From positions 1 to 54,283 of the IMG/VR virus record IMGVR_UViG_3300017747_002036: 54,283 nucleotides of DNA. One strand, written 5' to 3'. A program made the translations under genes and the position numbers. The notes below the pieces were generated by a model. It searched no databases, was not told the origin of the DNA, and was given only the letters and a program-made list of their open reading frames with translations. How positions within the stretch are numbered: position 1 is the stretch's first letter; each line of letters begins with the position of its first letter. This document shows, piece by piece, positions 9,403-34,652 of this stretch. The stretch is from a virus. Its lineage: Duplodnaviria > Caudoviricetes.

Positions 9403-9417
9403 GCTAGAACTATGCCA
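9403..9417 (-). promoter_or_regulatory. sigma54-type -24/-12 promoter TGGCATAGTTCTAGC
   Basis: GG-N10-GC, intergenic, about 50 nt upstream of the ATG at 9351. Confidence 0.85.
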
Positions 9418-9418
9418 A

Positions 9419-10063
9419 TCAAAGTTTGGTGTAGTCTATATCCTCATAATGTTTAATGTTCTGTCCGAAAGTTAATTTGAAATGACGGATTGATAAGTAG
9501 ATAGTTCCAGCTAGCTGCTTAACATCGCCTGTGTTAAAGAATACTTTATCAGGTGATATGGACTCCAACTCCGTCTCACTACTGTGTGTGTCAGTATTCT
9601 CTTTATCTACATCTGGCCGCCGGATACGCCAAAGGACGCCACCTTGGGAATTTATCCACGCTGCCTGTTTAGGATACCTAACGTCTGTAACAACTACAAT
9701 AGTTGGTTGTGTGTAGTCACCAGATAAAAACTTCTCAGCTAGTTGCCTATCCCAATAGTCTAGGCCAGACTCCAGTAATCTGCGTTGGTAGAATTCTTGC
9801 AATAAGAAACGAAACTCAGAAACATTTTCTTTAAGGTTATCTATCCATTTAATTCTATCTTCATTAGTTTCCATCCCAGCCATACCATCAAAAATCATAT
9901 GTTGTATTAACAAATTGGCCAATTCTAACTTCATTAAGTCTCCGTATGAAAGCCTAACTATCCTCCTATCTACACACATTTCCCTAAGGAGTTTGCATGT
10001 TGTATCTTTGCCTGATTGTTTCTTACCAACTAGGCCGATGATTGTTAATGATTTGTTATTCAT
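9419..10063 (-). CDS. Deoxynucleoside monophosphate kinase
   Basis: GKKQSGKDT P-loop, VTDVRYP, HSSE. Confidence 0.9.
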   Translation of the reverse strand: MNNKSLTIIGLVGKKQSGKDTTCKLLREMCVDRRIVRLSYGDLMKLELANLLIQHMIFDGMAGMETNEDRIKWIDNLKENVSEFRFLLQEFYQRRLLESGLDYWDRQLAEKFLSGDYTQPTIVVVTDVRYPKQAAWINSQGGVLWRIRRPDVDKENTDTHSSETELESISPDKVFFNTGDVKQLAGTIYLSIRHFKLTFGQNIKHYEDIDYTKL

Positions 10064-10239
10064 AATAGTTTTACTCCAATTGTTAATAGATCGTGATTCA
10101 CTTTAAAGATTTCTGCTTTATGCCCAAAGCTCAAGGTTAGTTTCTCGCCTATCTGGGGTTCATGGCTAAAGAACATAGTCCCTTCCAACTCAGGATAGTC
10201 ATGATAGACTGTAACTTCGTATCCAAATATTATGCTCAT
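10060..10239 (-). CDS. Small hypothetical protein (59 aa, not in the ORF track)
   Basis: MSIIFGYEVTVYHDYPELEGTMFFSHEPQIGEKL...; ATGA overlaps at both ends. Confidence 0.75.
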   Translation of the reverse strand: MSIIFGYEVTVYHDYPELEGTMFFSHEPQIGEKLTLSFGHKAEIFKVNHDLLTIGVKLL

Positions 10240-11300
10240 ATCTCAACTTCCACAGGGTTATAAGGTTTCTTGATGAAATTATTCTTTAGCATACCTCTCG
10301 TAGCAATATCGTCCGGCATACCACAAGGAACAGCAAACTTGCACATACCGTATACTGTTTGGCAAGCTCCATTAAGGACTCCCTCTGCTGGCGCGTAGTC
10401 TAGTAACGCATCCTCTAGTCCATCTTCGAATGTCTGCTCGCTTCCCTTCGCCCTCGCTGCTACTGACTGTAGCGTATCTACGAACCTATCTACAGTCTTA
10501 CCTAGCTGAACTTCAAACCTAGCAAGCTGGTCTTCTTTGAAGAGGAAGGGGCGAGATGATTTGAATATAGCGTCCTTATCTTTACCTTTCAAAAAGATTC
10601 CATCCACGATGCAAGATAGTGGACGAGAGACTACGTGAGAGTATATGTTATTAGGTTGGCCGCAAGCTTCAAGTAGAGCAGCAAGTTGCTTAACGCAGTA
10701 GACGTAGAAGTAGAGTTGAGGAGACAGTATGTAGTTATTAAGATATTCATCCTCATCATACACAGCAGTAGTCTTGTAGTCACGTATTGCGTAATGTTCT
10801 CCATTCTTAAACTTCACTATTCTATCCATAGTCCCAGCGAACATAACGTCGAAATCTTCACAGGAGTAACAAGGAACTACGAACTTGAGTTCAGTAAGAG
10901 CCGTCCCGTCATCCTTACGCGCTACTGTGAACAGCTTATTCTCAGCCTTCTTCTGCACTAATGCGTAGTGCATACAAACTTTAATGAGGTAGTCTTTAGT
11001 AAGATAGAGTTTATGTTTTTTATAGAAGATGTTGGGCGTATTGTCATAATACGCTATAGCTGCTTGCAGAGCTTTAGGTATTAGATGTTCGTAAGCTCCT
11101 GTGTCTGGGTCAGCTTCCTCGTCTAGTATCTGCGCGAACTTGTGGAAGCCCCAACCGAATACGATGTCTACGCTACATGTGCGGTCACTGTATCCTTGCG
11201 TTACTTGCCAGAAGAATCTACGAAAGCAAGAAGATATCTTAAGGGAGGATGCGTTAATGTAGAAGGTAGGCTTCTTTAGTTGTGATGCTGTGGTGGTCAT
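10236..11300 (-). CDS. PD-(D/E)XK exonuclease (RecB/Cas4-like)
   Basis: INASSLK..SC.R, GTMDRIV...IRDYKTT, QLYFY, C-terminal C...CKF..PC. Confidence 0.85.
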   Translation of the reverse strand: MTTTASQLKKPTFYINASSLKISSCFRRFFWQVTQGYSDRTCSVDIVFGWGFHKFAQILDEEADPDTGAYEHLIPKALQAAIAYYDNTPNIFYKKHKLYLTKDYLIKVCMHYALVQKKAENKLFTVARKDDGTALTELKFVVPCYSCEDFDVMFAGTMDRIVKFKNGEHYAIRDYKTTAVYDEDEYLNNYILSPQLYFYVYCVKQLAALLEACGQPNNIYSHVVSRPLSCIVDGIFLKGKDKDAIFKSSRPFLFKEDQLARFEVQLGKTVDRFVDTLQSVAARAKGSEQTFEDGLEDALLDYAPAEGVLNGACQTVYGMCKFAVPCGMPDDIATRGMLKNNFIKKPYNPVEVEI

Positions 11301-11301
11301 A

Positions 11302-11703
11302 TTAAGTAGTGAGCATTTTGCGTGCTGTGCGTAAGTCTTTAAGACTATTGACTATTAAAGTCTGAGCTACATATTCTGATAGAGCTTTGTGCAATGTGCG
11401 AATAAGCTGCTTGTCGTCTCTGAATAATTCTTCTGAAAGAATAGTTTCAAACTTATAGTCCTTCCCATTCAATCTAAACTTGCAGATAGCAACTACTTGA
11501 AACAACTGGAACTCTTCAATAAGAATCCAAGTTGCATGGAAGTTATTGTTAGTTGTTTCTATTCGTGCTACAATTGCATCCTTAGTTTCCTGCGACATTT
11601 GATGTGCTAACTTAATAGACTCATCAGTGGGTGCATGTTTATGCTCATGCGTAACATGAGTTGGAACATACTGAGTTGGCTTAATTACGGTTACATCAAA
11701 CAT
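11302..11703 (-). CDS. Hypothetical protein
   Basis: 133 aa ORF, operonic packing. Confidence 0.7.
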   Translation of the reverse strand: MFDVTVIKPTQYVPTHVTHEHKHAPTDESIKLAHQMSQETKDAIVARIETTNNNFHATWILIEEFQLFQVVAICKFRLNGKDYKFETILSEELFRDDKQLIRTLHKALSEYVAQTLIVNSLKDLRTARKMLTT

Positions 11704-11708
11704 AATAT

Positions 11709-11996: not shown

Positions 11997-11997
11997 A

Positions 11998-12696: not shown

Positions 12697-12700
12697 AACC

Positions 12701-13471: not shown

Positions 13472-13476
13472 ATAAA

Positions 13477-14762: not shown

Positions 14763-15305
14763 TTAATACCCACCAACAGGTTCAAACTTCTGGTGTGCAA
14801 CAGAAGGTTCAGACCAAGGCGTGTTAAGGATGGCAGAAGCCTTAGCACGAATGTCCTTCTCGCTATACTTCCCGCTGCTAGACAGCATGCTCTTAAACTT
14901 CTTGAAGTTGTCGTCCAGTTCCTTACCTGCGAAGAATGGATTGTAACCTTTCTTCCCAATGTATTCAGCAAGGCGACGCTTACGCTCAGCAACATGCTCA
15001 TCTACCTTAATCAGTAGTTCTGCTAGAGACAGTGAGCTAATGTCAATAGTAGGTTGTGAAGTAGCCTGCTGCACAATAGGTGGCGGCACATCTTCAACAG
15101 GAGTGAGTGATTCACCAGTTAGGACATTCACAACACTAGCTCCTACATTGGCAGAAGTTTGTGAAGCTGCTGCCCGTGCTTCTTCTTGGCGAGCTTGTTC
15201 GTCTACATTTACTACTTTGTTGTTGCCTTCTGTAGAATCTACAGACAGAGGTGAAGTGGCAACAAGTGGTTTAACTACAGGTGGTTTAAGAGATAGAGAG
15301 GACAT
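14763..15305 (-). CDS. Hypothetical protein
   Basis: 180 aa; first gene after a sigma54-type promoter. Confidence 0.8.
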   Translation of the reverse strand: MSSLSLKPPVVKPLVATSPLSVDSTEGNNKVVNVDEQARQEEARAAASQTSANVGASVVNVLTGESLTPVEDVPPPIVQQATSQPTIDISSLSLAELLIKVDEHVAERKRRLAEYIGKKGYNPFFAGKELDDNFKKFKSMLSSSGKYSEKDIRAKASAILNTPWSEPSVAHQKFEPVGGY

Positions 15306-15346
15306 AGTTTATTATGGAGTTACTCGGTTGAGTTTGACAGACTAGA

Positions 15347-15361
15347 GCTAGAAGTGTGCCA
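15347..15361 (-). promoter_or_regulatory. sigma54-type promoter TGGCACACTTCTAGC
   Basis: GG-N10-GC, intergenic, about 40 nt upstream of the ATG at 15305; identical to 21500-21514. Confidence 0.88.
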
Positions 15362-16073: not shown

Positions 16074-17141
16074 CTAACTAAAATCTAGTTCCCCGAACAT
16101 AGCAAACCTCTTGATGTATGCTTGCAACGCTCTCACATTACCTGACAATTGTGCTTCTGTAAACGTATGGTTCCTTGGAAACTTCCCTGCAAATGGACGT
16201 GTGCTACGTGAAGTGTCAATGTTATCTATGATAAGAGGAACGTCAGCTATACGGTCCCACAAACGCTTAGTCTTAAGTGTAAAGACTGCAACTCGCCAAT
16301 ACAAGTCCTCTCTGAACAATCCCTTAGCACATTCAACAGGTAAGTCTTTGTTGGTTGCTACTATGATACGACAGTTGATTGGTTCACTATCGTTACTACC
16401 TACTCTACGAATAGACTTCTCTTGGATTACACGCAGCAGCTTAGCTTGCATAGACATAGACAATTCGCCGAACTCATCTAGGAATATCGTCCCGTTCGTA
16501 GCTGCTTTGAACAGGCCCACCTTATCTTGTATCGCACCAGTGAATGAACCACGCACATGGCCGAACAGTTCGCTCTCAACTAACGACTCTGGTAAGCCAG
16601 CACAATTGATACTTACCATCTGAGTCATCTTACTACAGGCTAGTGCTCGGGCAATAATCTCTTTGCCAGTTCCAGTAGGTCCAGTGATAAGGACTGGTTC
16701 ATCAAGAGAAGTAAGATGGCGAACTCGTTCCTTCATCTTGATTGTATCTGGGTCAGTAGTGATATAAGTATCTAGAATACTATCAGTCCCTGATTGGATA
16801 GCTGGTTTAAAGGTAGGGTCTATCTTGTATACGTATGCACCTCCGCCGCCTGACATTCCTATCATTGCGTTATTGTTACCCTTAATATAATGTAACTCGC
16901 ATTGGTCTAGAAACTTCTCGGCTGCTTCAATAACACCGAGGTTAGCAAGTGCATTGAACTTAGATTGGTCGGCAGGAAGTAGCTTAGTAAGTCTCTCGAG
17001 AGTAAGCTTAGAAAACTTTGCTTCTATCTCAGGCGATAGCGGAGTAGTATTAAGTTTGCCTGACTCAAACTCAGCACGTAGTTTCTGAGATGGAGTAAGA
17101 GCAGGGAGTGGTTTGTATGGAGTGTTAGGTGATGCTGACAT
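16074..17141 (-). CDS. sigma54-dependent transcriptional activator (bEBP AAA+ domain) lacking HTH and receiver domains
   Basis: Walker A GPTGTGKE, INCA, ESELFGHVRGSFTGA, Walker B IFLDE, QAKLLRVIQE, RIIVATN, FREDLYWR, GNVR; the protein ends 19 aa after GNVR. Confidence 0.96.
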   Translation of the reverse strand: MSASPNTPYKPLPALTPSQKLRAEFESGKLNTTPLSPEIEAKFSKLTLERLTKLLPADQSKFNALANLGVIEAAEKFLDQCELHYIKGNNNAMIGMSGGGGAYVYKIDPTFKPAIQSGTDSILDTYITTDPDTIKMKERVRHLTSLDEPVLITGPTGTGKEIIARALACSKMTQMVSINCAGLPESLVESELFGHVRGSFTGAIQDKVGLFKAATNGTIFLDEFGELSMSMQAKLLRVIQEKSIRRVGSNDSEPINCRIIVATNKDLPVECAKGLFREDLYWRVAVFTLKTKRLWDRIADVPLIIDNIDTSRSTRPFAGKFPRNHTFTEAQLSGNVRALQAYIKRFAMFGELDFS

Positions 17142-17452: not shown

Positions 17453-18679
17453 TTATTCCTCTTCCTCATCTTCTCCCTCCGTCATATCATTCTGCAAGTC
17501 CGCTACGTTATCTGTTCCAACAGACACAGCGTTCTTATCTTCTTCTGATATGAAGTCAGATTCTTTCTTGGCCTCTGTGATTAGCGAGTCCCAAGATTCT
17601 TTAGCTTGAGTTACCTTCCTAAGACAGCGCATCTTTAAGTTAACAATAGCATACACTGCTTCCTCAATAGTCCCACGGTAGAATAGAATAGTCTGTTCTG
17701 TATCCGTAAGAGACGTTAACCTGTGCGCCCTGCCTAGGCCTTGCACTATCTCAATAGCAGAGTAAGTCGGGGCCAAGAATGCCCTACGTTGCCGCGACTT
17801 AACTATCTTGTTGCCCGTCTCCTTGTCTACTTTTGCCCACTCATCAGTGTGATGTAGCGATAGACCTACACCACCAGACTTAAAGGTGAACATCGCTACA
17901 CGTGAGTTGCCAGATTGGAACCTATCAATCTCCTCCTGTCTGGCTACTCTGTTCTGTGGACCGAACTTGTTAAGGATTGCGAAGTCTCTTGCTTCACGTT
18001 CTTCTGGAGTTTCTATTGCTGGGTTACGAAGCTTCTTAAGAACTAAGTCCTGCTGTTCTTTGTTAGCTCCTGCTGCTATCATCTTAGTTAGTATTGATGC
18101 TATCTCATCCTCACTGAACTGGACAGTGTTACTCTTATTCCCAGCCGCTACCATCTCTGTGCTACCTCCCCAGATTAAGGAAATGTCAGACCTCTTGAAC
18201 CCATGCTTCTTAATTAGCCTACTTACAGTCCCGACTATAGTCTGCTTAAACTTAACTGCTAGCACTGCATCTTGGCCGTTCTTCACAGCATTAGCTGCAC
18301 GCTCTGCAAGCACATCACACCTACAAAACTCTGCTGCTTTACAGAACTGTAGCATCTCAACTAGAATCTTGAACTTCCCTTCCGGTGTTGTCTTATCTAC
18401 CTTCGCAGCCTCTAATTGAAATCTTTCCCACGCTTTAGCGTAGTAGTCTCGTGCCCAGTCAGACTGGAAGGAGATTAGTTCTGCGTTGTTTATAGATTTG
18501 AAGTCGGACCTTACATTCTTCACGTCATATACGTAGTCCTTCATTGCGAACATGAACCTCTCAATACCAGCAGGAGAGTGTTCTTTGGGGTCAATGTTAC
18601 CTCCAGAACGGAAGCCATTAGCTAAGTCTTTAGAAAGGTCGCCCCAAGTAGCTTGAGTGATGCGAGTTTTGCTTTTCAT
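17453..18679 (-). CDS. SF2 helicase C-terminal (RecA2) part, strawberry-notch-like
   Basis: IDRFQSG, SGGVGLSLHH, RQRR, YSA..IVQGLGRAHR (motifs V and VI). Confidence 0.85.
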   Translation of the reverse strand: MKSKTRITQATWGDLSKDLANGFRSGGNIDPKEHSPAGIERFMFAMKDYVYDVKNVRSDFKSINNAELISFQSDWARDYYAKAWERFQLEAAKVDKTTPEGKFKILVEMLQFCKAAEFCRCDVLAERAANAVKNGQDAVLAVKFKQTIVGTVSRLIKKHGFKRSDISLIWGGSTEMVAAGNKSNTVQFSEDEIASILTKMIAAGANKEQQDLVLKKLRNPAIETPEEREARDFAILNKFGPQNRVARQEEIDRFQSGNSRVAMFTFKSGGVGLSLHHTDEWAKVDKETGNKIVKSRQRRAFLAPTYSAIEIVQGLGRAHRLTSLTDTEQTILFYRGTIEEAVYAIVNLKMRCLRKVTQAKESWDSLITEAKKESDFISEEDKNAVSVGTDNVADLQNDMTEGEDEEEE

Positions 18680-18690
18680 AATGCTAAGTG

Positions 18691-19917
18691 TTAGTCTCCC
18701 TTATACCCCACCATATCCTCACTTCCAACTTCCGCTCGTGTTGCTAGAGCGAACGTCTTAGCCTCCTCTACAGTAGTGAAGGGCGTAGCTGAAGAGAATA
18801 ATTGCCAAGTGTTGGGTGCTGCCCACTTACTTTCAGGTAGTGGCGTGCAATGGTCTAGTGTCCAGCAAGGATGCTTGTGTAGCAGGGAATCATCTTCCAG
18901 CTTCTTATCAGCTATCCTACTATACGCACGCGCTATCTCAGTCTGTGTAGACCCCGTGTTCTTAAGAGACTGGCATTCATCCCACACTATCACGCAAGGG
19001 TGAATAGTATCTCTCCAAACAGGGAACAGAACTTCCTCACCGTTAACTATCTGTGTGTGCCACTGAATCATTATGTCACCCAGACTTGCGCGAAGTTGGT
19101 CATAGTTAGTTACGAGGACGCCGCCTACATACTTACCTACAGGTAGGCCGAACTTATCCCGGAGGACACGTTCAGTCTGTGTTACGATAGGAGCTTTCGT
19201 GACTACCATGTAAGGGAATAGAGAGTGAACAGGTCCGACGTGGAAGTTAGTATCCCAGAGCCAGCGGAGAAGTTGGCCTATGATATACGTCTTCCCCACT
19301 CCCACTCCTGCGCGAAGAAGCTGGGCTCGTTTGTTATCCCTTACAAAACCTTTAAAGTAATGTGCTGCTGCATCTACTTGGAAGTAACGGAGTTCTGCTT
19401 CTTGCTTGGAGGTATCAAGTGGAGGTATGATTCCTCCATTCTCAAGTAAGTCTTCCTCTGGGACACGAGCATACCAATTGTTGTAACGTCTATGCGCTTT
19501 CTTCTGAGCTTTCTTGTCTATGATTGTAGACTGCACTGGCGCAACTACAGGTAAAGGGGCCGCCTCCTTCTCTACTTCTGGCTGACTCACAGTCTCCTGC
19601 ACGCTAGCAGATAACGCTGTAGTAGGTTGCGACAGGGCTGAGTTAACTACTGAGGCGGCAGATAGAGACTTGATGTAGTTGTTACGGACTAGCTCAACAG
19701 CAGACTTAACTGTTAAAGGAGTAAACTCTTTTTGTATCAGTATGTGCGGAGTAATCTCAGGCTTATCTATAGCTGTTGGAAACTTAGCATCAAACAAGTC
19801 ACATAGTTTACCTGCTACATCTTGCCAAAGAACTAGCTCCTTAAACTGCACTCCCGAAACTAGAGAGTTAATAGCATACTTAAAGAACTTATCCGCTTCT
19901 TTGATGGAGGGGTTCAT
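18691..19917 (-). CDS. SF2 helicase N-terminal (RecA1) part, strawberry-notch-like
   Basis: Q-motif LRYFQ, Walker A AGVGVGKT, TNYDQL, Walker B VWDECQSLKN, motif III SSATP. Confidence 0.85.
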   Translation of the reverse strand: MNPSIKEADKFFKYAINSLVSGVQFKELVLWQDVAGKLCDLFDAKFPTAIDKPEITPHILIQKEFTPLTVKSAVELVRNNYIKSLSAASVVNSALSQPTTALSASVQETVSQPEVEKEAAPLPVVAPVQSTIIDKKAQKKAHRRYNNWYARVPEEDLLENGGIIPPLDTSKQEAELRYFQVDAAAHYFKGFVRDNKRAQLLRAGVGVGKTYIIGQLLRWLWDTNFHVGPVHSLFPYMVVTKAPIVTQTERVLRDKFGLPVGKYVGGVLVTNYDQLRASLGDIMIQWHTQIVNGEEVLFPVWRDTIHPCVIVWDECQSLKNTGSTQTEIARAYSRIADKKLEDDSLLHKHPCWTLDHCTPLPESKWAAPNTWQLFSSATPFTTVEEAKTFALATRAEVGSEDMVGYKGD

Positions 19918-21459: not shown

Positions 21460-21499
21460 AGTGATGCAATGAAATGCGTGTTAAATTGTAACGGATGAA

Positions 21500-21514
21500 G
21501 CTAGAAGTGTGCCA
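21500..21514 (-). promoter_or_regulatory. sigma54-type promoter TGGCACACTTCTAGC (heads the operon containing the helicase and bEBP genes)
   Basis: GG-N10-GC, about 40 nt upstream of the ATG at 21459. Confidence 0.88.
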
Positions 21515-21669: not shown

Positions 21670-22152
21670 TTACGCCGCAACAGTTTCATCTTCCTCTGCA
21701 GTCTTGCGAGGCGCACGCTTACGCAGTTCCATGAGTTCACGCAGCTCACCAAGGCGAGATTGAATCTCAACCATACGCGGCATCTGAGCAGGGTCAGAGA
21801 AGTTAATCTTGGTGAACTCAATCACCAAAGCATCTTCCTCATCCTTCAACTCAGACAGAGAAGCAGAAGTAGTCTTCGCGTTGAGGACAAACTTCGTGAA
21901 CTTATCTACGTCAGGGTTGCCTTGTGAATCACACGATTCATTGTAGGCGTTGATGAAGAGTTGGCGGAGAGCAGCGTTAATCTTGTTGATAACGAAATCA
22001 TTACCGAAGAATTCAGTAATGAGTCCGAAGTTATTCTCATCAACAGACAAGCCAAGGAACTTCTTGCCCTTAGCGGAGCCCTTCGTAATCTCCTGCGTGC
22101 TAACGTCGATTTCAACTTTGCGTCCGTCTGCGAGTTCTTTTGCGATTTTCAT
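21670..22152 (-). CDS. Hypothetical protein in its own transcription unit
   Basis: 160 aa, flanked by its own sigma54-type promoter and terminator. Confidence 0.85.
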   Translation of the reverse strand: MKIAKELADGRKVEIDVSTQEITKGSAKGKKFLGLSVDENNFGLITEFFGNDFVINKINAALRQLFINAYNESCDSQGNPDVDKFTKFVLNAKTTSASLSELKDEEDALVIEFTKINFSDPAQMPRMVEIQSRLGELRELMELRKRAPRKTAEEDETVAA

Positions 22153-22282: not shown

Positions 22283-22285
22283 TAA

Positions 22286-22300
22286 GCTAGTTGTATGCCA
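22286..22300 (-). promoter_or_regulatory. sigma54-type promoter TGGCATACAACTAGC
   Basis: GG-N10-GC, intergenic, oriented toward 22152. Confidence 0.85.
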
Positions 22301-23783: not shown

Positions 23784-24347
23784 TTAATTCTTAGTTAAGG
23801 TTAGTTTAACTTGCGGGACGACATATTTGCTATCTTGCGTCCATTCTGGTTGAGGAGTTCTTTTGCGCCAAGTTGCAAATCGTGGTATCTTCTCACCAAT
23901 GTAATACCTTCTGTAAGCTGTTACGTAGTCAGAGTGTTTGTAACGAGATGGCATACATTGAGGAGGAGTTGTGATATCTATTGAATCATTAGGATTGTAG
24001 AAGGTAGAATCTTCTAATAGTCCTATTGCATGACAAGCAATATCTAAAGATTTATGTATCTTACCATATCTAGCTTTATACTGTTGTCCCATTTCGTAAA
24101 CATGAATCCACAACCACGAATAGTTAGCAGGAGATTCACGCAACCAAATAGAGCAAGGATGATTCTTGTGCGTTGACTTGTATAAACCTAACTCGTTACA
24201 TTTCTCATCTCCAACCTTATCACGTGCTAGAGTAGAAAGCAATTGTGCGCTCTCAAGTAGCATTTTAACTACGTGTTGGTCACATAGGTATGTTGCTGCT
24301 AGACGGGGATTATTGTCTAAGAAGAAAATATTTATAGAGTTACCCAT
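23784..24347 (-). CDS. Pyrimidine-dimer DNA glycosylase/endonuclease V-like protein
   Basis: NIFFLD...CDQHVVKMLLESAQLLST, THKNHPC, RYGKIHKS, PPQCMP, VTAYRRYY. Confidence 0.85.
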   Translation of the reverse strand: MGNSINIFFLDNNPRLAATYLCDQHVVKMLLESAQLLSTLARDKVGDEKCNELGLYKSTHKNHPCSIWLRESPANYSWLWIHVYEMGQQYKARYGKIHKSLDIACHAIGLLEDSTFYNPNDSIDITTPPQCMPSRYKHSDYVTAYRRYYIGEKIPRFATWRKRTPQPEWTQDSKYVVPQVKLTLTKN

Positions 24348-24910
24348 CCTTTCCGTTTTAATGTTGCGTCAACTAAACGTTCCACCATCTTAATTTCTTC
24401 GTCTGTTAAAGGTTTTAACAAAACATTTTCAAAGTAAGTGCCTTTAGGCTTAACTCTTGAAAGGGCATAGTTATATGAATAAGCTGCTTGATGAATTGAA
24501 TAACAAACAGGCAACACTGTCTTCTTATAATTTACACAGATATCTGCTTTCCATTTCTGGCTAGTTGCATTCCATGTAACACCTTTATAAGGACAGTCAA
24601 TTACTCTATGTTTGCGCTTTGCAGCTAAAGCAACATTTTGTTGTTGCGAAGTGGCTTGTAAATTACACTTACAATTATTGAGTCTGTCTCCATCTATATG
24701 ATGAACTGCGCCATATTCAGCATTAAGAATAAATCTATGCAACAGCACACTACCGTTATGCTTTCCTGCATTTAACTTTTTGTATAAATCGAAACTGTGA
24801 GCATAACCTTGCTGATGTATATACCACGAGTAAGCTGAAACTCGCTCGAAATCTTCATCATCAATTAATGCTACACAGTTTGTTTGGCCTAATAGTTTTA
24901 TTTCTTTCAT
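24332..24910 (-). CDS. HNH-AP2 homing endonuclease
   Basis: ALIDDEDF, LHRFIL..VHHIDGDRLNNCKCNL, YKGVTW...AAYSYN. Confidence 0.9.
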   Translation of the reverse strand: MKEIKLLGQTNCVALIDDEDFERVSAYSWYIHQQGYAHSFDLYKKLNAGKHNGSVLLHRFILNAEYGAVHHIDGDRLNNCKCNLQATSQQQNVALAAKRKHRVIDCPYKGVTWNATSQKWKADICVNYKKTVLPVCYSIHQAAYSYNYALSRVKPKGTYFENVLLKPLTDEEIKMVERLVDATLKRKGWVTL

Positions 24911-24934
24911 TATGAATCCTTTTTATCTTACAGA

Positions 24935-24949
24935 GCAGGATTCATGCCA
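24935..24949 (-). promoter_or_regulatory. sigma54-type promoter TGGCATGAATCCTGC
   Basis: GG-N10-GC, 25 nt upstream of the ATG at 24910. Confidence 0.8.
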
Positions 24950-25239: not shown

Positions 25240-25368
25240 TCAGTAAGCTAACAACAACCAAACCATAACAGCAAATAGCACACAGCCTCCAACATCTGCA
25301 AGGAGTTGTTCATTGTCACGGATGATGTTACAGAGGCGAATGAGAAGAGGAGTGTTATCTTTGTTCAT
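25240..25368 (-). CDS. Small membrane peptide (42 aa, not in the ORF track)
   Basis: MNKDNTPLLIRLCNIIRDNEQLLADVGGCVLFAVMVWLLLAY. Confidence 0.55.
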   Translation of the reverse strand: MNKDNTPLLIRLCNIIRDNEQLLADVGGCVLFAVMVWLLLAY

Positions 25369-25376
25369 GCTATGTG

Positions 25377-25502
25377 TTAATATTTGTCGAATCTTTTCTC
25401 TATTTGCAGAATAAGACCAATAATCAAGAATACTATGGCAGTTGCTATTACTTTATCAAACCACCACGGCGAATGCCAAAATTGTTCGTAAATGGATTGC
25501 AT
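25377..25502 (-). CDS. Small membrane peptide (41 aa, not in the ORF track)
   Basis: MQSIYEQFWHSPWWFDKVIATAIVFLIIGLILQIEKRFDKY. Confidence 0.6.
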   Translation of the reverse strand: MQSIYEQFWHSPWWFDKVIATAIVFLIIGLILQIEKRFDKY

Positions 25503-25610
25503 AGAGTCAATAGCTAAAGAGTAACGTTGGATGATAGTATATCATAAATGTGTAGAAGCTTTAAATAAACCACTTGCAACCAACAAACCGCAACCAACAA
25601 ATAACGGAAA

Positions 25611-25640
25611 TAGCCGCCAAGTAAGGTAGCTCGGCGGCTA
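25611..25640. terminator. GC-rich hairpin
   Basis: tagccgcc...ggcggcta downstream of the 25665 stop. Confidence 0.55.
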
Positions 25641-25664
25641 GATTGGAAGAAGTGTGGGTGTTAA

Positions 25665-25946: not shown

Positions 25947-26432
25947 ACAGGACTCTTAGTGTATAAGCAGCCACATGTTCACACTTCAAAAGTAAAGTAA
26001 ACAATAACTTCATTTGTGTTTAGGTTATGTTATGGGGCACAAAATCGCCAAATTGCTGCATAAAGCATTAGCGTTTAATACCTCACTTTATGATACATAC
26101 AACAGAGATTCATACTGTAATTTTCCCTGTTTGTCTGGCTTTGTTAATGTTTACTTAAAGTAAAGCCTAGTTAGTGCTTATGGTAGCATACCTCAGCACG
26201 CTACTTTGTTGTCACCACTAGCTAGGTTGTCTTATCCTATTGGGATTTATTAGGTTACAGTGGCGGCTATTTAACAATTCGCAAATAGCAAACCGCAACC
26301 AGCAACTAACTAATTAAATCTTTGAACGCGTAGGATAAGTTGGAAACTTAGTTATACTCTCACATTGTCCAATAAAGGAGTCTCATGCTACGTTGTCATA
26401 GCATGATGTTATTGCGCTTGGTTACGCAATTA

Positions 26433-26447
26433 GCAAGAAGCGTGCCG
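26433..26447 (-). promoter_or_regulatory. sigma54-type promoter CGGCACGCTTCTTGC
   Basis: Near-consensus GGCACG-N4-TTGC in a non-coding region. Confidence 0.75.
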
Positions 26448-26744
26448 TTGTAATTTTCATACAGAGTCCAATAGAGTATACGCATCTCTACCGCAACCTT
26501 TTCGCATACAGTCTTCCAACTTGGGAATGTTAGTCTGTAGCTAGTAAGCTAGGCGCTTAAAGCTGTCTCAATGTTTTCACTTACATGCACTCACGGCATT
26601 CAGTTACTTCCACGTCTATATTTCGGTAACGCTACTAAGTAAGCTGTGGTTAACAGCGCAAAGGGTTTACTTATTCCGATTCGATGCTTTATTACTTAGC
26701 TGGCGGCTTATTGCATTCCGCCTATTACAAGCTAGTTACTGACT

Positions 26745-26777
26745 ACTGGGCAGTAGATATTTAACTTACTGCCCAGT
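26745..26777 (-). terminator. Hairpin after the 26785 stop
   Basis: actgggcagta...tactgcccagt, 11-bp stem. Confidence 0.7.
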
Positions 26778-26784
26778 GTGTCAA

Positions 26785-27506: not shown

Positions 27507-27695
27507 CTAATTGAAAGAAAATGTCCGCTTATCCCAATTATATACGCCAGCAGGATTCTTGCCAAACTTGTGGGCAATCCATTTAAAAACGAATTCATGC
27601 GGCCAATTTTCAGGAAACACAACGCAAGTAGGTTCTTCCACTGGCATACCTTGCAAGTTAGCAAGCTCATTAGCGTTAGACGGTTTAAGAATCAT
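27507..27695 (-). CDS. Small hypothetical protein, first gene of the minus arm
   Basis: 62 aa, directly behind a sigma54-type promoter. Confidence 0.65.
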   Translation of the reverse strand: MILKPSNANELANLQGMPVEEPTCVVFPENWPHEFVFKWIAHKFGKNPAGVYNWDKRTFSFN

Positions 27696-27710
27696 AGCAA
27701 GAGATTGTTA

Positions 27711-27725
27711 GCACTCCCTATGCCA
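27711..27725 (-). promoter_or_regulatory. sigma54-type promoter TGGCATAGGGAGTGC
   Basis: GG-N10-GC, 16 nt upstream of the ATG at 27695. Confidence 0.72.
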
Positions 27726-27729
27726 TACG

Positions 27730-28440
27730 CCAGAAAAACATTCTTAGGCGAGACTATACTCTGTAACTACCTAATAATGAGCTGCTTACAAACAATTCAT
27801 ACGTAAGCGTATAATGCTCAATTTTAGCCACTACTGTTTATTATTATACAGTCTGCCTAATACTAACCAACTATGTATAAATATAGTCAACTTCATGGTT
27901 AACTTTGGGCATATTGTCTAAATAGATACAGTGCAATTTGCATTCATTAGCCTTTCTTATTCCATGCCATATCTCCTATTACCTTCTACCATATACGCCA
28001 ATAGGAGAGCTTAACAGGTAACATTACTGTTCCTGTTATCTCTTTACCGGAATGGGGTTGAATTCCCTTTTCTTCTTTATATTATATATATTTTTTTATT
28101 ATTTGTATGTTATATATAACATACCTATAACCCCGCCAGCCCTGAAAAACTGCTCAAAAACGCCATTTCACAAAAAATCCCTTACGCGCTAATGCTCCTT
28201 TGCCTTGTGGCGTGGCGTCTACTTGTTACCTCCTGCTACCTAGTTGCTACCTAGCTACCTTATGACAATTCTTAGCCCGTAGTAGAACTACTTCATACGC
28301 TACTATTAGCTTACCTACTAACGACGTAGAAGTCGATGGACCCAACGGGTGAATGCCCCATTACATGCCACCTCTCACAAAATTGCAATTTTAGATTCAA
28401 GTGAACTTGAAGTGTGAAAGTGTAGAAGTAGGAGGTAAGA
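27730..28440. other. Non-coding divergence region; candidate origin, packaging site or physical genome end
   Basis: No convincing ORF; near-pure AT tract at 28075-28125; GCTACC direct repeats at about 28224-28260; lies just upstream of the terminase genes. Confidence 0.5.
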
Positions 28441-28446
28441 ATGCGA

Positions 28447-28461
28447 TGGTATACTTCTTGC
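28447..28461 (+). promoter_or_regulatory. sigma54-type promoter TGGTATACTTCTTGC heading the virion arm
   Basis: GG-N10-GC with a TTGC -12 box, upstream of the terminase genes. Confidence 0.8.
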
Positions 28462-28476
28462 TCTGTAGGAGAGTAT

Positions 28477-28590
28477 ATGAAAGATCAACTGTATAAACTT
28501 ATGCGTGTGGGAGAAGTAAATGGCTATGCCCTACAGAGTATGGTAATTGTTATGAACTGCCCAGCTCTGCGTGGATTATTCACTTCTTAA
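28477..28590 (+). CDS. Possible 37-aa leader ORF
   Basis: MKDQLYKLMRVGEVNGYALQSMVIVMNCPALRGLFTS; AGGAGAG upstream. Confidence 0.4.
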   Translation: MKDQLYKLMRVGEVNGYALQSMVIVMNCPALRGLFTS

Positions 28591-28654
28591 CAGTTGCAAA
28601 CATGCCGCCCGGTAACCAGAGCCTTGCCGTCCATTAGTCTACCTAGCATCATTT

Positions 28655-29110
28655 ATGACCTCCCTAGAACAACAAGTTATCTCTGCCTACGATGAGTGCG
28701 ACCTCTCCGTAGAAGAAATTCTTGCTGAGTTCGAGGGCCTAGAAAGGGAGTCAGTTCTAGTTACGCTACAGAAGTTCTCTAGCAAATATAAAGATGGAGT
28801 TAAGTCTGGTGAAGAGAAGAATGTTCTAACAGACAGTGAGATGGATGCACTTAAGGCAGTGCTAATGAATTTAGCTCTTGACGGAGAATGTGAGGCTGTT
28901 AAGTTCTCAGCTGCTAAATTCATGTTTAACGAAGGGAAAGGACGTAACAACCCTCAGAAGAACATTGGCCGCTCGCTAACTGTAAACATCTTACAACTTA
29001 ATGAACAGTTGAAAGCGGGTCAGTCTAGGTATCAGCAAGCACGTGAGCGTAAACTAACTTCGCAGCCAGCCCAAAACCCCTCGTCCGCCCTTACTACTGT
29101 TGATGTATGA
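28655..29110 (+). CDS. Putative terminase small subunit
   Basis: ATGA overlap with the large terminase; helical LMNLAL..ECEAVKFSAAKFM segment. Confidence 0.6.
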   Translation: MTSLEQQVISAYDECDLSVEEILAEFEGLERESVLVTLQKFSSKYKDGVKSGEEKNVLTDSEMDALKAVLMNLALDGECEAVKFSAAKFMFNEGKGRNNPQKNIGRSLTVNILQLNEQLKAGQSRYQQARERKLTSQPAQNPSSALTTVDV

Positions 29111-31062
29111 CAGAAGCTGAAGAAGTAGCCGCCTTAGCTCGTCAACTAGCCGAGAAGAAATCTTCTGGTAGACTACCTCGTAACCCTGTAGTAGAGTCTG
29201 TGGCGGCTAACTCCCCTGTTGCTGGTTGCGATTTGCGGGTTGCGGATTGCGATTCGGATACTTCTACTGCAGACCAATCTACAAATAGCAAAGGGCCCTC
29301 ACCTAAGCCAAAGGAGGGCGCGAAAGAGTATACAGAAGAGGACTTTGCTAAGCTACTAGCACCGCAAACTCAGCCGGACAAGTATAAACTAGTGGAGTTC
29401 CGTGACCCAGCTGAGCTACTTTACATTGTAGACCCTAACTTTCGAGATGGCAGACGTGACCTCTATGGTTGGCAGATGGAAACTCACGACTTATTCGTGA
29501 AGTGGAAGTATACTGAGCATGACCCACTTAAGTTCTACCTTCGTGCAGCTAACGGTTCAGGTAAAGATGCTTACGTAATCGCTCCTTTTGCTGTGTGGTT
29601 CGCCTTGTGTAAGGTTAGGTCGCGGGTAATCATCACATCTTCCTCTTACCAACAGCTAGAAACGCAAACGGAGTCCTACATTAGAACACTTTGTGCTCAA
29701 GTAAACGAGTATTTCCAAGAAGAAGTCTTCTACATAAGGAAACTTCACATCATTTGTAAGTGGACAGGAAGTGAAATCAAATTATTCTCTACAGATGACC
29801 CCGGCCGTGCAGAAGGTTATCATCCATTTCCAGATTATGCAGGGGCAGAGATGGCAATTGTAGTAAACGAAGCTAAGACTGTCCCTGATTGTATATTTGA
29901 AGCTCTAAAACGATGCACAGGATACAACTATTGGCTAGAAGTTAGCTCACCTGGACAAACATCTGGACATTTCTACAACGTAGTTACGAATGCGGTAGAT
30001 TATGTAGCCGGCACTACAACTTTCACAGGCGCGTCACTTACTAGGAAAGTCACAGCATATGAATGTGACCACTTCTCTAAGCAATCTATTGACCGTGAAG
30101 GAGAAGAAGTAGGCAGAGAGTCATCTTGGTTCCGTTCTTCTAAACTTGCTGAGTTTACTACGCAAGATGAGAGTGTAGTTATCAGTCGTGAACTGATTGA
30201 GAAAGTTCTACGACAGAATACTAGGCACATGCGAGTAAAAGGAGAAGTTAATAACAAGAAGTGTGGCACAGACTTAGGATTCTCTAAAGATGAAACAGTG
30301 TCTTGGGTAATAGATGGTAATAAACTACTGGACTCCTTCGAGATGGTGCAGAACGATACAACTGTTCAAGTAGATCGGTTATGTATGTTCTATGAGAAGC
30401 ATAATCTTAAGGGTGACGAGATAGCTGTAGATGACTCTAATTTCGGCCACTCTGTAAATGACATGTTAGGTCTGCGCGGGTATCAAGTTCGCCGCGTTAC
30501 AAACCAAAGCAGAGCATACTCTAGCAAAATCTACGGTAACAGAGGCGCTGAGATGTGGTTCAATTTTAAGCGTCTGTTGGAGTTAGGACTTGTTTGCGGA
30601 TTGGATAGAGTTAAGCACAAGATACTTATCGAGCAACTCTGTAACAGGTATTACAAGCAGACTGAATCTAACGGGAAGATATACTTAGAGAGTAAGAAAG
30701 AAGCTCGCGCTAATGGACATGGTAGTCCTGACCGTGCAGATGCTTTAGTTCTAGCGTTCTCTTTCTACAACGTAAATGATTTCCTAGAAGAAGCAGAGAG
30801 CGTAGAGGAGACTACGCTGCGGCAGAAGTCAAAAGGAAAGTTAGCAGCTGACTTTGCACGTGACTACGAAGAGAGAGTAACTTACAAGGGCCTTCATAGC
30901 TCCGGCACAGAAGCTGCTTCTTCTGATGAATCAAGTTGGAAACTAGCTACTACGTTTCAAGGTAGGATTCCTTCTGTTGTTGGATTCATTAGGAAGAGAA
31001 TCGGTAATAAGGATTCAGCAAGTCCAACTAAACCTTACAGTTTCAAAACGTCTTTAGATTAA
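29107..31062 (+). CDS. terL: Terminase large subunit
   Basis: WQ adenine-binding motif, Walker A RAANGSGKD, Walker B IVVNEA, coupling motif SSPG, nuclease GTDLG..DETV and SPDRADAL. Confidence 0.92.
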   Translation: MTEAEEVAALARQLAEKKSSGRLPRNPVVESVAANSPVAGCDLRVADCDSDTSTADQSTNSKGPSPKPKEGAKEYTEEDFAKLLAPQTQPDKYKLVEFRDPAELLYIVDPNFRDGRRDLYGWQMETHDLFVKWKYTEHDPLKFYLRAANGSGKDAYVIAPFAVWFALCKVRSRVIITSSSYQQLETQTESYIRTLCAQVNEYFQEEVFYIRKLHIICKWTGSEIKLFSTDDPGRAEGYHPFPDYAGAEMAIVVNEAKTVPDCIFEALKRCTGYNYWLEVSSPGQTSGHFYNVVTNAVDYVAGTTTFTGASLTRKVTAYECDHFSKQSIDREGEEVGRESSWFRSSKLAEFTTQDESVVISRELIEKVLRQNTRHMRVKGEVNNKKCGTDLGFSKDETVSWVIDGNKLLDSFEMVQNDTTVQVDRLCMFYEKHNLKGDEIAVDDSNFGHSVNDMLGLRGYQVRRVTNQSRAYSSKIYGNRGAEMWFNFKRLLELGLVCGLDRVKHKILIEQLCNRYYKQTESNGKIYLESKKEARANGHGSPDRADALVLAFSFYNVNDFLEEAESVEETTLRQKSKGKLAADFARDYEERVTYKGLHSSGTEAASSDESSWKLATTFQGRIPSVVGFIRKRIGNKDSASPTKPYSFKTSLD

Positions 31063-31072
31063 CTACAATATC

Positions 31073-33010: not shown

Positions 33011-33034
33011 ACTCAAATAGAAAGCATCACATAT

Positions 33035-33358
33035 ATGTTATCAACTAAAGAAGCAATAGAGTTAAGTAAGAACAAACCTGTAGATGAGAAGAAAGCAGAG
33101 AGTGCAGCTGAATTAGCTGAGTTGCGTTTAGTTAAGTTGCAATGGTTAGAGCATCCTGTAACTAAAGCCTTGATTAAATACTTGTCTGAGCATGAACTGA
33201 ACGAAATAGCTTCAGCTGTTGCTTGCAAGAGTCTGAATAGAGACCAAGATGCGCTTAACAGATTAGTCTCATTGGAGCAGATTAGAGTTATCAAACACGC
33301 GATATCTTCGCCTAATTTCATTTTCGGTAATGCACACACTACCAACAATCAAGAATAA
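33035..33358 (+). CDS. Hypothetical head-assembly protein
   Basis: 107 aa between portal and scaffold; WLEHPVTK motif. Confidence 0.7.
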   Translation: MLSTKEAIELSKNKPVDEKKAESAAELAELRLVKLQWLEHPVTKALIKYLSEHELNEIASAVACKSLNRDQDALNRLVSLEQIRVIKHAISSPNFIFGNAHTTNNQE

Positions 33359-33369
33359 GAACACAACAT

Positions 33370-34590
33370 ATGGACCCAGAAGAAATTGATAAAGAGCCTG
33401 TAATTGAAACTCCCTCTGCCGGAGATTCTGCACCTGTTGCAGATAACACTCCTGCACCAGTTAGTAACGACAATCCATCTGTTGAAGATGTGATGGCAGA
33501 ATTTACTTCTGCTGGTTTAGCTCCGTCTATTGGCGAAACCAAGAAGCCACTTCCGCCGCCAGTTACTGTGCCTGCGCCAGGAACTAAGCCAACTCCTAAG
33601 CCAGTTGCTAAGGTTGAAGAACCAAAAGAGGAAGAGAAGAAGGAAGCTGCACCCGAAGGTGTAGAAGGGTTGTTCAAGAAGATGGGAGAGCTTGCGAAAG
33701 AGCCTGCTCCAGCCAAGGAAACGCCCAACGTAAGTAAAGGAGGGAAGCCAACACATAGAGATTACGCTAAAGACTTGCCTACTGAATTGCATGCTGTAGC
33801 AAAGGAGATGTCTAATCCTGCATATACTGAGTTCGTTAAGTATGTGCAAGAGAATAAGGCTCTTAAAGCCGATAAGACAATCAAGTCTGAGAACGGTTTG
33901 CCTGTATCTTACTTAGAACATCCCGACTCTTACATTCTATCTCCTGACTTCAATCAAGCAACGCAAGTTATTAGGCAAGCAGACAGTGTGTTAGCTCACT
34001 GGGAAGTGCAGAAGAGGAAGATTGCAGAAGGCGAAGATTGGCAAGACTTGGACGTAGATGAGAATGGGAAGATAGTCTTAGGTCGTGTGCATCCAGCTAG
34101 CGAAGAAGCTAAGTTCAAGATTGGGCAATACATTCAACATGTTTCTAGTAAGAAACAGGAAGCTCAGAGATTCGCTGGAGAAATCAAGCAGACATTCGTT
34201 GCTCGCACTCAACAGACAACTAAGTGGTTAAGGGAGCAGGAAGATATTCACATGCCTATGTTTAAAGATGAGAAGTCTCCTCTCTGGGCAGATGCAAATG
34301 AAGTCTACAAGCAACTTCCTCCTGAGTTGCGGCATTCTCCTCTGTCGTCCACTCTTGCCAAGACAGTAGCCGTCAACAGGGCTTCTATTGGCTACAATAA
34401 GATGCTGATGCAGCAAGTGGATGAACTCAAGAGTAGGCTTGCGAAATACGAAAAAGTAGAACGTCCGGCGGGTAACAATGGAGTTGTGAAGGCGTCTGCT
34501 ACAAGTGGAGGTAGGTCAACAGTTAAGCCGGGAGATGTTCCAGTAGAGAATGTTTTGGAAGAGTTTGCAGCTGCGGGATTTAAGTTGTAA
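33370..34590 (+). CDS. Scaffolding protein (putative)
   Basis: P/E/K-rich disordered N-terminus plus coiled coils; lies before the capsid gene. Confidence 0.65.
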   Translation: MDPEEIDKEPVIETPSAGDSAPVADNTPAPVSNDNPSVEDVMAEFTSAGLAPSIGETKKPLPPPVTVPAPGTKPTPKPVAKVEEPKEEEKKEAAPEGVEGLFKKMGELAKEPAPAKETPNVSKGGKPTHRDYAKDLPTELHAVAKEMSNPAYTEFVKYVQENKALKADKTIKSENGLPVSYLEHPDSYILSPDFNQATQVIRQADSVLAHWEVQKRKIAEGEDWQDLDVDENGKIVLGRVHPASEEAKFKIGQYIQHVSSKKQEAQRFAGEIKQTFVARTQQTTKWLREQEDIHMPMFKDEKSPLWADANEVYKQLPPELRHSPLSSTLAKTVAVNRASIGYNKMLMQQVDELKSRLAKYEKVERPAGNNGVVKASATSGGRSTVKPGDVPVENVLEEFAAAGFKL

Positions 34591-34637
34591 CTAACAAGTT
34601 AGTTATCAATAGCGTGCCTTGTGTAACACAATTACCT

Positions 34638-34652
34638 TGGCACGCTTTCTGC
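34638..34652 (+). promoter_or_regulatory. sigma54-type promoter TGGCACGCTTTCTGC for the major capsid gene
   Basis: Near-consensus TGGCACG-N4-YTGC, intergenic. Confidence 0.9.

Follow-up and report, generated by a model that had tools for sequence, protein, structure and literature searches.

Candidate sigma-54 promoters and a sigma-54 activator encoded by a lineage of uncultured phages

A two-armed phage genome with a sigma-54 activator gene and -24/-12 boxes

The IMG/VR entry IMGVR_UViG_3300017747_002036 (Duplodnaviria; Caudoviricetes) comprises 54,283 bases, has a terminal repeat of 123 bases and a GC content of 42.7%, and represents a complete virus; this whole stretch of DNA is referred to here as the window. 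On the minus strand at 16074-17141 it carries the gene for a protein of 355 amino acids of the sigma-54 activator family (Pfam Sigma54_activat), and in the gaps between its genes lie boxes that resemble the -24/-12 promoters read by sigma-54 RNA polymerase. A first-pass annotation of the sequence had proposed that the phage runs its replication as well as its virion genes on the sigma-54 holoenzyme of the host, switched on by an activator of its own, and it is this proposal that we follow up here.

The genes of the window are arranged in two arms that diverge from a 959-base gap (27696-28654). The minus-strand genes run from ~27.7 kb down to 1.2 kb and encode an HNH endonuclease, a DNA-binding protein, a split helicase, the activator, a PD-(D/E)XK nuclease, a deoxynucleoside monophosphate kinase, an AAA_24 ATPase, a two-piece family A DNA polymerase, a DUF3987 primase/helicase and a ligase. 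The plus-strand genes begin at 28.6 kb, reach the record end and carry on across the terminal repeat to 1068, and their products are putative terminase subunits, the products of a portal-sized and a scaffold-like gene, the capsid protein, tail proteins and a giant protein with an ADP-ribosyltransferase domain. Altogether 5,951 bases (11%) of the window are non-coding. Immediately upstream of the activator gene, and in one transcription unit with it, lies the split helicase with its two halves of 408 amino acids each (17453-18679 and 18691-19917, both minus strand; PHROG 62 and 16, DNA helicase), and this neighbourhood is conserved.

A sigma-54 activator reduced to its AAA+ core

The product of 16074-17141 matches the Pfam family Sigma54_activat (PF00158) with E = 9.4e-57 and 191.8 bits at a cut-off of 20.2, whereby residues 128-289 correspond to profile positions 3-167 of 168. 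Its AAA+ domain spans residues ~124-353 and contains the Walker A motif GPTGTGKE, the Walker B motif FLDEFGE, the sequence GSFTGA in the L1 loop (residues 198-203) and the sensor II motif GNVRAL. Among 43 homologues of the phage family the residues G154, G157, G159, K160, E161, D222, E223, N335, and R337 are invariant, as are F200 and T201 of the L1 loop, and the loop residues G198, G202, and A203 are conserved to at least 90%. The AlphaFold2 (AF2) model has a predicted local distance difference test (pLDDT) score of 82 overall and of at least 90 across most of residues 121-310. Its top Foldseek matches are the AAA+ domains of FleQ (E = 8.5e-24), FlrC, NtrC1, and PspF (E ~1e-19 to 1e-20 for NtrC1 and PspF), and the solved structures that come closest include those of the fragment PspF(1-275) and of comparable cores. 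AAA+ family, catalytic and sigma-54-contact motifs and fold together confirm, at the level of sequence and predicted structure, that the protein is a genuine sigma-54 activator.

The sequence matches in the PDB (NifA, FleQ, ZraR, NtrC1, and PspF) cover residues ~124-353 and stop at residue 345-353 of 355, and therefore the activator ends where the AAA+ lid ends. No C-terminal helix-turn-helix (HTH) family of the enhancer-binding type was found in it by Pfam. Among the matches listed, the HTH family PF02954 occurs in three long proteins (460-558 amino acids), and in none of those of 243-359 amino acids. Judged by its sequence, the activator belongs to the minority class without a DNA-binding domain. 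The first-pass annotation had called it a bacterial enhancer-binding protein (bEBP), of which the assignment to the sigma-54 activators stands by family match, loop and fold, but “enhancer-binding” is a misnomer because a DNA-binding domain is lacking. At the other end, residues 1-127 have no Pfam match, and thus no receiver, GAF, PAS, or V4R sensing domain was found there. In the model, residues 17-86 contain a few helices and residues 83-115 are disordered, and a structure search of the Atlas with residues 1-125 gave no usable match. This N-terminal part of ~125 residues occurs in the nearest relatives of the window only.

The boxes of the window

Nine intergenic GG-N10-GC boxes had been reported for the window, each oriented with its arm, and all nine were recovered with the same positions, strands and sequences, each in a gap between open reading frames (ORFs) and pointing in the direction of its arm. 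The bare GG-N10-GC pattern is too loose to be specific, with 267 matches in the window vs. 217.7 +/- 13.6 in shuffled sequence. When the consensus TGGCACG-N4-TTGCW was scanned with GG and GC fixed against 200 shuffles, 28 matches with at most three mismatches were observed vs. 13.1 +/- 3.9 (largest 26), 11 vs. 2.4 (largest 6) with at most two, and 3 vs. 0.3 (largest 2) with at most one. Ten of the 28 lie in non-coding DNA, nine of them in sense orientation. The boxes were scored with a weight matrix that was built from 74 distinct sites in relatives and from zero sites of the window, because circularity had to be avoided. This matrix finds 11 matches of at least 12 bits vs. 0.87 in shuffled sequence, 9 vs. 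0.36 at 14 bits or more, and 7 vs. 0.14 at 16 bits or more. The 11 matches that reach 12 bits are without exception in sense orientation to their arm and 9 of them are intergenic, so that the consensus and the weight-matrix scan both bear out an enrichment over shuffled sequence with intergenic and sense bias.

In the minus arm, the box TGGCACACTTCTAGCT at 21499-21514 (19.4 bits) heads the unit of the split helicase and the activator gene. The same sequence TGGCACACTTCTAGCT is found again at 15346-15361 (15.5 bits) as the first box downstream of the activator, before 14763-15305 and the nuclease/kinase block, which has its parallel in the relatives, where a box lies just after the activator gene. 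These two boxes (15347 and 21500) share an identical 15-mer, and as their flanks are unrelated, they are not copies of a longer repeat. Further minus-strand boxes are TGGCATAGTTCTAGCT at 9402-9417 before the AAA_24 gene 8521-9351 and the downstream replication genes (18.7 bits vs. 0.01 expected per genome), TGGCATACAACTAGCT at 22285-22300 before 21670-22152 (15.1 bits), TGGCATGAATCCTGCT at 24934-24949 before the HNH endonuclease gene 24332-24910 (20.0 bits), and CGGCACGCTTCTTGCT at 26432-26447 (18.6 bits), which lies in an ORF-poor gap of 838 bases and is followed by ~475 bases without an ORF of at least 60 amino acids. The best box of all, TGGCACGCTTTCTGCT at 34638-34653 on the plus strand, stands 262 bases before the major capsid gene with 22.4 bits vs. 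0.00 expected.

The boxes at the heads of the two arms are marginal by score. TGGCATAGGGAGTGCT at 27710-27725 (minus strand), at the head of the left arm, has 12.6 bits with 0.73 expected per genome, and TGGTATACTTCTTGCT at 28447-28462 (plus strand), at the head of the right (packaging/virion) arm, has 12.8 bits with 0.65 expected per genome. Both are mainly carried by a position that is common to the relatives, as back-to-back boxes occur in the divergent region of these, and their homologous right arm is headed by a box before the homologue of 28655-29110. Two extra candidates lie within ORFs. One is TGGCACGATAACTGCT at 44854-44869 (plus strand, 18.9 bits) inside the 3' end of the tail-region gene 43412-45193 and upstream of 45202-45600 and 45530-46525, for the latter of which a relative (G014) has an intergenic box before the homologue. 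The other is TGGCAAGAATCCTGCT at 27549-27564 (minus strand, 16.8 bits) inside the small ORF 27507-27695, where it overlaps a sigma-70-like TTGGCA-17-TATAAT.

Activator and boxes co-occur in a phage lineage

The window belongs to a large uncultured phage lineage. A search of 5.8 billion proteins gave a family of short activators of 243-359 amino acids, many of them with a longest contig of 42-64 kb, which is phage-sized. An alignment of this family then revealed 254 IMG/VR contigs that encode a related short activator, of which 80 loci were kept. The loci have a replication module in common: of the 80, 66 and 51 contain the helicase halves, 69 the nuclease, and 41 and 47 the pieces of the polymerase. 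Twelve relatives are complete or near-complete (51-56 kb, GC 30-51%) and have the same two-arm layout as the window, including homologous portal, scaffold-like, capsid, tail, and giant proteins. Cultured close relatives were sought and not found. A megablast search of 25 kb of the window against cultured phages and a tblastn search of 50,697 GenBank phage records with a polymerase piece and the capsid protein gave no match, and of the 65 records matched by tblastn with the activator none covers 80% of it, those listed being fragmentary or host-DNA-carrying by their names and annotations. A search via the large terminase alone found no relatives. Capsid relatives without activator, which would have made a natural negative set, were sought as well, and all 13 capsid loci proved to be of the same lineage. 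Of the five capsid records that were not already known with an activator, the sole one that is at least 90% complete has the activator, and the other four are fragments of 14-63%. Outside the lineage, the 41-kb metagenomic phage MT121960.1 of GenBank shows a match to the AAA+ part of the activator (34% identity over residues 150-345), and therefore other phage groups may carry activator genes, too.

For the lineage scan, 81 sources with together 1,259,961 bases were searched for the consensus with at most two mismatches, and a match was counted as gene-directed if a gene on the same strand lay within 300 bases. With the canonical N4 spacer there are 94 gene-directed intergenic, 27 other intergenic and 95 coding matches, whereas the spacers N1, N2, N3, N5, N6, and N7 give 2, 4, 5, 2, 1, and 1 gene-directed intergenic matches, respectively. 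Since identical sequences were scanned with identical words, composition and gene-call errors cancel in this comparison, and only the exact -24/-12 geometry stands out in the lineage. In coding regions the numbers are 95 at N4 vs. 46-59 at other spacers, and in the 13 whole genomes 44+15 intergenic matches at N4 face 1 to 4 at other spacings. Four unrelated phages of similar size that are not among the activator-matching records (199,107 bases) served as control, and here N4 gives 1+1 intergenic and 9 coding matches, which equals the other spacings. This corresponds to ~4.5 intergenic boxes per genome in the lineage vs. ~0.5 per 50 kb in the control phages. Altogether, 57 of the 81 sources have at least one gene-directed intergenic box. 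The co-occurrence of activator and motif in related phages, which the first-pass annotation had named as a check, is thereby borne out across the lineage, with four unrelated control phages showing no enrichment, and so is the strict spacing, at 94 sites vs. 1-5 at each of six other spacers.

The sequence logo of 93 sites reads tTGGCAYG-N4-yTGCT, and the T before TGG, which was outside the selection criteria, is present in 70 of the 93. Upstream of the box the logo is flat from -20 to -2, without a common element. A count of 7-mers that makes no use of the motif also has TTGGCAC, TGGCACG, and TGGCATG among the words most enriched upstream of genes, at 4.6-5.9 times their frequency in coding DNA. 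The positions of the boxes are ordered as well. Relative to the activator gene, 105 intergenic boxes of the 80 loci are on the same strand and 9 on the opposite one. None lies in the 3 kb upstream of the activator, a stretch that is filled by the helicase genes, and 41, corresponding to about half of the loci, fall within 1 kb after the start of the activator match, which is just past the stop codon. A box directly precedes the capsid homologue in 10 of the 13 whole genomes over a GC range of 30-51%. Boxes of the relatives also head the packaging arm, often back to back in the divergent gap.

A second short element was seen in the relatives. Many boxes have the word yAATTTC(C) ~5-30 bases downstream of their last base, and behind this word there is often a short GC-rich hairpin (for instance in the loci L004 at ~4143 and 10773, L013 at 4408, L014 at 9153, L020 at 3849, L034 at 3090, and L041 at 4436). 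The word is located inside the predicted 5' leaders and is overall 4-7 times enriched upstream of genes. Its possible functions are those of a leader RNA element, of a processing site or of a signal for translation.

Indications of the host

Two DNA runs labelled as freshwater metagenome are listed as containing the window sequence, and the window may itself stem from one of them. The best 80 cellular relatives of the activator from 185,579 species genomes are spread over many phyla at ~37-54% identity, and none of these 80 occurs with another gene of the window phage. In the window and 12 relatives, Shine-Dalgarno-like words precede 12-26% of the starts, which are crudely called, vs. 11-20% of control positions, and the leaders are rich in A. 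In combination with the need for sigma-54 this gives a weak pointer to a host that probably relies little on Shine-Dalgarno sites, for example one of the Bacteroidota. That the relatives range from 30 to 51% in GC suggests many host genera.

A proposed sigma-54 transcription programme

Sigma-54 holoenzyme depends on an AAA+ activator for promoter opening. A six-frame profile search for Sigma54_DBD found no match in the window and none in 16 relatives, with matches in 4 of 14 named control genomes, including Bacteroides thetaiotaomicron, and therefore sigma-54 of the host would be needed. The best explanation for these findings appears to be that the phage transcribes most or all of its genes by means of the host's sigma-54 RNA polymerase. 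That this polymerase and the phage activator together drive the candidate promoters we consider probable, at roughly 0.8. Enrichment, spacing, co-occurrence, the activator motifs and the missing phage sigma-54 all argue for it, and to this extent the programme envisaged by the first-pass annotation is supported.

According to this model, the phage would provide an AAA+ activator that is pared down to the ATPase core, while the sigma-54 holoenzyme of the host would be bound to some eleven -24/-12 promoters. Several of these would serve the early or left arm, one would head the activator's own unit, and one would follow the activator for the replication genes. Another would head the packaging arm, another would precede the capsid gene, and there is probably one within the tail region. 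The promoters bound by the holoenzyme would then be opened through the hydrolysis of ATP by the phage activator, and the box at 21499 in front of the activator unit would give positive feedback. Since it has no known receiver or sensor domain, the activator can be assumed to be active without a signal, as soon as it is made, and since it has no DNA-binding domain, it would work from solution and on whichever closed complex of sigma-54 it meets, instead of from an enhancer, as do truncated PspF and natural activators that have no DNA-binding domain. That the logo is flat upstream of -24 agrees with there being no fixed enhancer. We infer from the sequences that the boxes fire and that this needs host rpoN and the phage activator, and no signal.

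A bolder version is that the lineage of ~50-kb phages runs its entire genome, beginning with the first genes at the divergent control region and up to the capsid, on host sigma-54, with no housekeeping-sigma promoters at all and with an activator that is free of signal and enhancer. This we regard as possible, but doubtful. Ignition would in this version come from host activators acting from solution or from trace read-through, followed by the positive feedback.

Several points count against the proposed programme. The activator gene itself lies downstream of sigma-54 boxes and has no recognisable independent promoter, so that the model is without an ignition step. Sigma-70-like matches are 1.8-fold enriched in gaps (38 intergenic of 267), and the Bacteroidetes -7 motif TAnnTTTG, which could have marked another promoter class, is not enriched. 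The L1 loop reads GSFTGA vs. the canonical GAFTGA, with S instead of A as second residue. Two of the nine boxes of the window (27711 and 28447) are marginal by score. Of the 81 sources, 24, many of them short fragments, lack a gene-directed intergenic box when up to two mismatches are allowed, and 3 of the 13 whole genomes lack a pre-capsid box at up to three. All 13 capsid loci do have a pre-capsid box (146-181 bases upstream), and these loci are not independent, as 8 come from contigs of the activator set and 3 from the scanned genomes. The gene calls in the relatives are crude longest-ORF calls. The possession of rpoN by the host is an assumption, and no RNA runs are listed as containing the window sequence.

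With respect to ignition, an alternative promoter class was sought and rejected, as sigma-70-like sequences are barely enriched, the -7 word is not, and no common motif is found upstream of the helicase-activator unit; in one relative (G010) a box directly heads this unit. At the start of the left arm of the window two sigma-70-like promoters lie on the minus strand, TTGGCA-17-TATAAT at 27565-27537 (11/12), overlapping the sigma-54-like box at 27549, and TTGACA-17-TATCGT at 27502-27474 (10/12). Furthermore, TTGACAC is found at 26784 in the first 1 kb of this arm and a strong terminator-like hairpin at 25640-25611. A short early unit of sigma-70 type in the left arm is possible on these grounds, the end of which would be 8 kb short of the activator gene. 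Host activators acting from solution, read-through and packaged activator are candidates for the first spark.

Alternative explanations

An explanation that differs in the source of the activation is that the boxes are real sigma-54 promoters, of which at least the early ones are fired by activators of the host, and that the phage activator is an amplifier or timer for middle and late genes. The infection would then be gated by the sigma-54 signalling state of the host. The location of the activator gene behind sigma-54 boxes, including that of the unit in G010, speaks for this idea, as does the fact that no other promoter class is clearly enriched. Moreover, Flavobacteriaceae proteins of 387 amino acids with receiver and AAA+ domain and with no HTH family listed are among the nearest cellular relatives listed, and such proteins could act from solution on any sigma-54 promoter. 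However, most cellular activators need upstream sites of their own, whereas the logo shows no common upstream element. We consider early firing by host activators unlikely, and it would be a refinement of the proposed programme rather than an alternative to it.

It is very unlikely that an unrecognised phage factor, such as a divergent sigma factor or a virion RNA polymerase, reads the motif and that the activator has another role. Room for such a factor is given by the lack of a family match for most proteins of the phage and by a protein of ~2,240 amino acids that is probably injected and mostly uncharacterised. The first-pass annotation had seen neither an RNA polymerase nor a sigma factor, which holds for sigma factors in so far as Sigma54_DBD was absent and Sigma70_r2 was not found in six-frame profile searches. 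T7-type RNA_pol was not found either, in a search that is weak, as it was without a positive control and the control genomes had no match as well. The closest to a sigma factor is 33370-34590, a conserved protein of 406 amino acids encoded between the portal-sized and the capsid gene, which has a weak match to a PHROG annotated as “sigma factor” (E = 7.2e-4). Its model consists of a disordered N-terminal part of 130 residues and long helices, and none of 262 Foldseek matches has E <= 0.001. It was rejected as a sigma factor in view of the missing sigma Pfam domain, the missing significant fold match and its scaffold-type position, and it is probably the scaffold, with the PHROG match probably being spurious. 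Against any other phage factor stands that the motif agrees with the sigma-54 consensus in one position after the other, down to the flanking T and the strictly kept spacing, and that it travels with a protein whose only known role is sigma-54 activation.

The activator might also mainly reprogram the sigma-54 regulon of the host (nitrogen, motility, envelope), with the boxes of the phage being secondary. An activator without DNA-binding domain should indeed fire host sigma-54 promoters, too, and the available excerpts of a preprint (bioRxiv 10.64898/2026.10.06.757011) propose a reprogramming of the host by a bEBP-like phage AAA+ protein. Yet phage genomes that range from 30 to 51% in GC have boxes in homologous places, namely in front of the capsid gene and behind that of the activator, and the density of the boxes in the lineage is far above that in the control phages (~4.5 per genome vs. 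~0.5 per 50 kb), which makes a main role in the host highly improbable. That the boxes are chance matches or a repeated element, for which the abundance of bare GG-N10-GC (267 in the window) and the two boxes with an identical 15-mer could be quoted, is a negligible option, rejected by the shuffle, spacing, orientation and cross-genome tests and by the different flanks of the identical boxes.

Relation to known systems

Activators that lack or do not need a DNA-binding domain are known with FlgR of Helicobacter pylori, CtcC of Chlamydia and the fragment PspF(1-275). The phage activator resembles them in the AAA+ core, the GAFTGA-type loop and in its predicted action on sigma-54 holoenzyme without enhancer binding, but differs in being encoded by a virus, in having no receiver domain and an unrelated N-terminus of ~125 residues, and in that it appears to serve viral promoters. 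Late transcription of phage T4, with gp55, gp33, and the sliding clamp gp45, has an energy-dependent mobile activator instead of a classical one bound to DNA and is functionally the closest textbook case. Here, too, the core polymerase of the host is redirected to a simple promoter class. T4 brings the sigma-like gp55 and its replication clamp, whereas the window phage is proposed to use the sigma-54 of the host and a bEBP-type ATPase, and there is no homology between the two. Ogr of P2 as well as C and Mor of Mu are small DNA-binding proteins that recruit sigma-70 holoenzyme to middle or late operons of the phage. Here, too, a phage activator switches on phage operons that are read by the host polymerase, but the activator proposed for the window phage is an ATPase remodelling sigma-54 holoenzyme.

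In full-text literature, at a coverage without most subscription journals, we found no phage described with a sigma-54 activator of its own and -24/-12 promoters, in line with the earlier statement that no characterised phage is known to work this way. The nearest item, as far as the available excerpts go, is the preprint on Htm (Gp204) of an Escherichia coli phage (bioRxiv 10.64898/2026.10.06.757011), an AAA+ protein that is structurally like RtcR, PspF, and NtrC and has no C-terminal DNA-binding domain, for which a contact with the sigma-54 polymerase is hypothesised. According to these excerpts Htm has no GAFTGA loop or motif and an altered Walker B, and it is discussed as a modulator of host transcription. 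The same passages report no phage sigma-54 promoters, whereas the activator of the window is far above the Pfam threshold and accompanied by conserved phage boxes. Excerpts of PMC3844500 describe that a constitutive, promiscuous DctD fragment lights up the whole sigma-54 regulon of Salmonella, and hence that a core without regulatory or DNA-binding parts fires sigma-54 promoters generally. As presented there the fragment is a laboratory construct, whereas the phage activator is a natural gene conserved in a lineage. For gp2 of the Pectobacterium phage Q19, which the passages seen of PMC7693777 present as putatively sigma-54-like (weak HHpred E = 0.67), a link between phage and sigma-54 has likewise been proposed from sequence. 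In that case the likeness is to sigma-54 itself, in a T7-like phage with its own RNA polymerase, and neither an activator nor -24/-12 promoters are mentioned in these passages. Reported links between rpoN and phage sensitivity in Salmonella are explained by metabolism and RpoS.

The element that would be new is that a known switch of sigma-54 and activator is owned by a virus and serves the virus's own programme, which is supported by the genomes compared here. To our knowledge, no bacterial system other than sigma-54 transcription stays completely off until it is switched on by an ATPase, and a virus that owns this ATPase would have a tight gene switch insulated from the host without a polymerase or sigma factor of its own. 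If the proposed programme is true, it extends the short list of transcription programmes that textbooks give for phages by one strategy and explains the regulation of an abundant, wholly uncultured phage group. It would also make rpoN an essential host factor and a resistance route for phages of the lineage, and would offer minimal activators of ~230-300 amino acids without DNA-binding domain, with matched promoters, for synthetic biology. The bolder version would amount to a fifth general route of takeover beside phage polymerases, phage sigma factors, sigma appropriation and antitermination, and infection would be tied to the sigma-54 state of the host. A question raised by either is the source of the first activator molecules.

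Other features of the window

The candidate target gene with the best box, 34915-36192 (plus strand), has no Pfam or PHROG match and was assigned to the major capsid protein by its structural neighbours in the Atlas, which are Phage_capsid_4 and Phage_capsid_3 clusters with template modelling (TM) scores of 0.61-0.80, and by its position 3' of the portal-sized and the scaffold-like gene. In the gap 36193-36971 that follows, an unlisted start at ~36238 inside the ORF 35996-36769 would give an N-terminus that resembles a signal peptide. The putative large terminase in the candidate target arm (29107-31062, plus strand) is assigned by position, size and synteny, as it has only a weak match to Terminase_6N under the cut-off (E = 0.037), its size and position fit, and its homologues are syntenic in the relatives.

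Between the two pieces of the family A DNA polymerase (4251-5297 and 5591-7285) lies an ORF of 99 amino acids (5299-5598), and this split as well as that of the helicase is kept in the relatives. Neither a tRNA nor an Rfam family was found in the window, and the latter holds also for two stretches of the early left arm, 25262-25664 (403 bases) and 25947-26784 (838 bases). These are ORF-poor and contain GC-rich hairpins of the type GGCGGC...GCCGCC, and may represent non-coding RNAs or very small genes. A very AT-rich run at 28080-28130, midway in the divergent gap of 959 bases, may be an origin or a DNA-bending region between the back-to-back promoters.

The giant protein of ~2,240 amino acids results from the frame 48506-54283, which runs off the record end and, by way of the terminal repeat, stays in frame as far as 1068. 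Residues 514-634 form an ART-PolyVal ADP-ribosyltransferase domain, the remainder being uncharacterised, and homologues are encoded by most of the 12 whole relatives. The protein may be of the injected “polyvalent” kind, and a modification of the host polymerase by it is conceivable.

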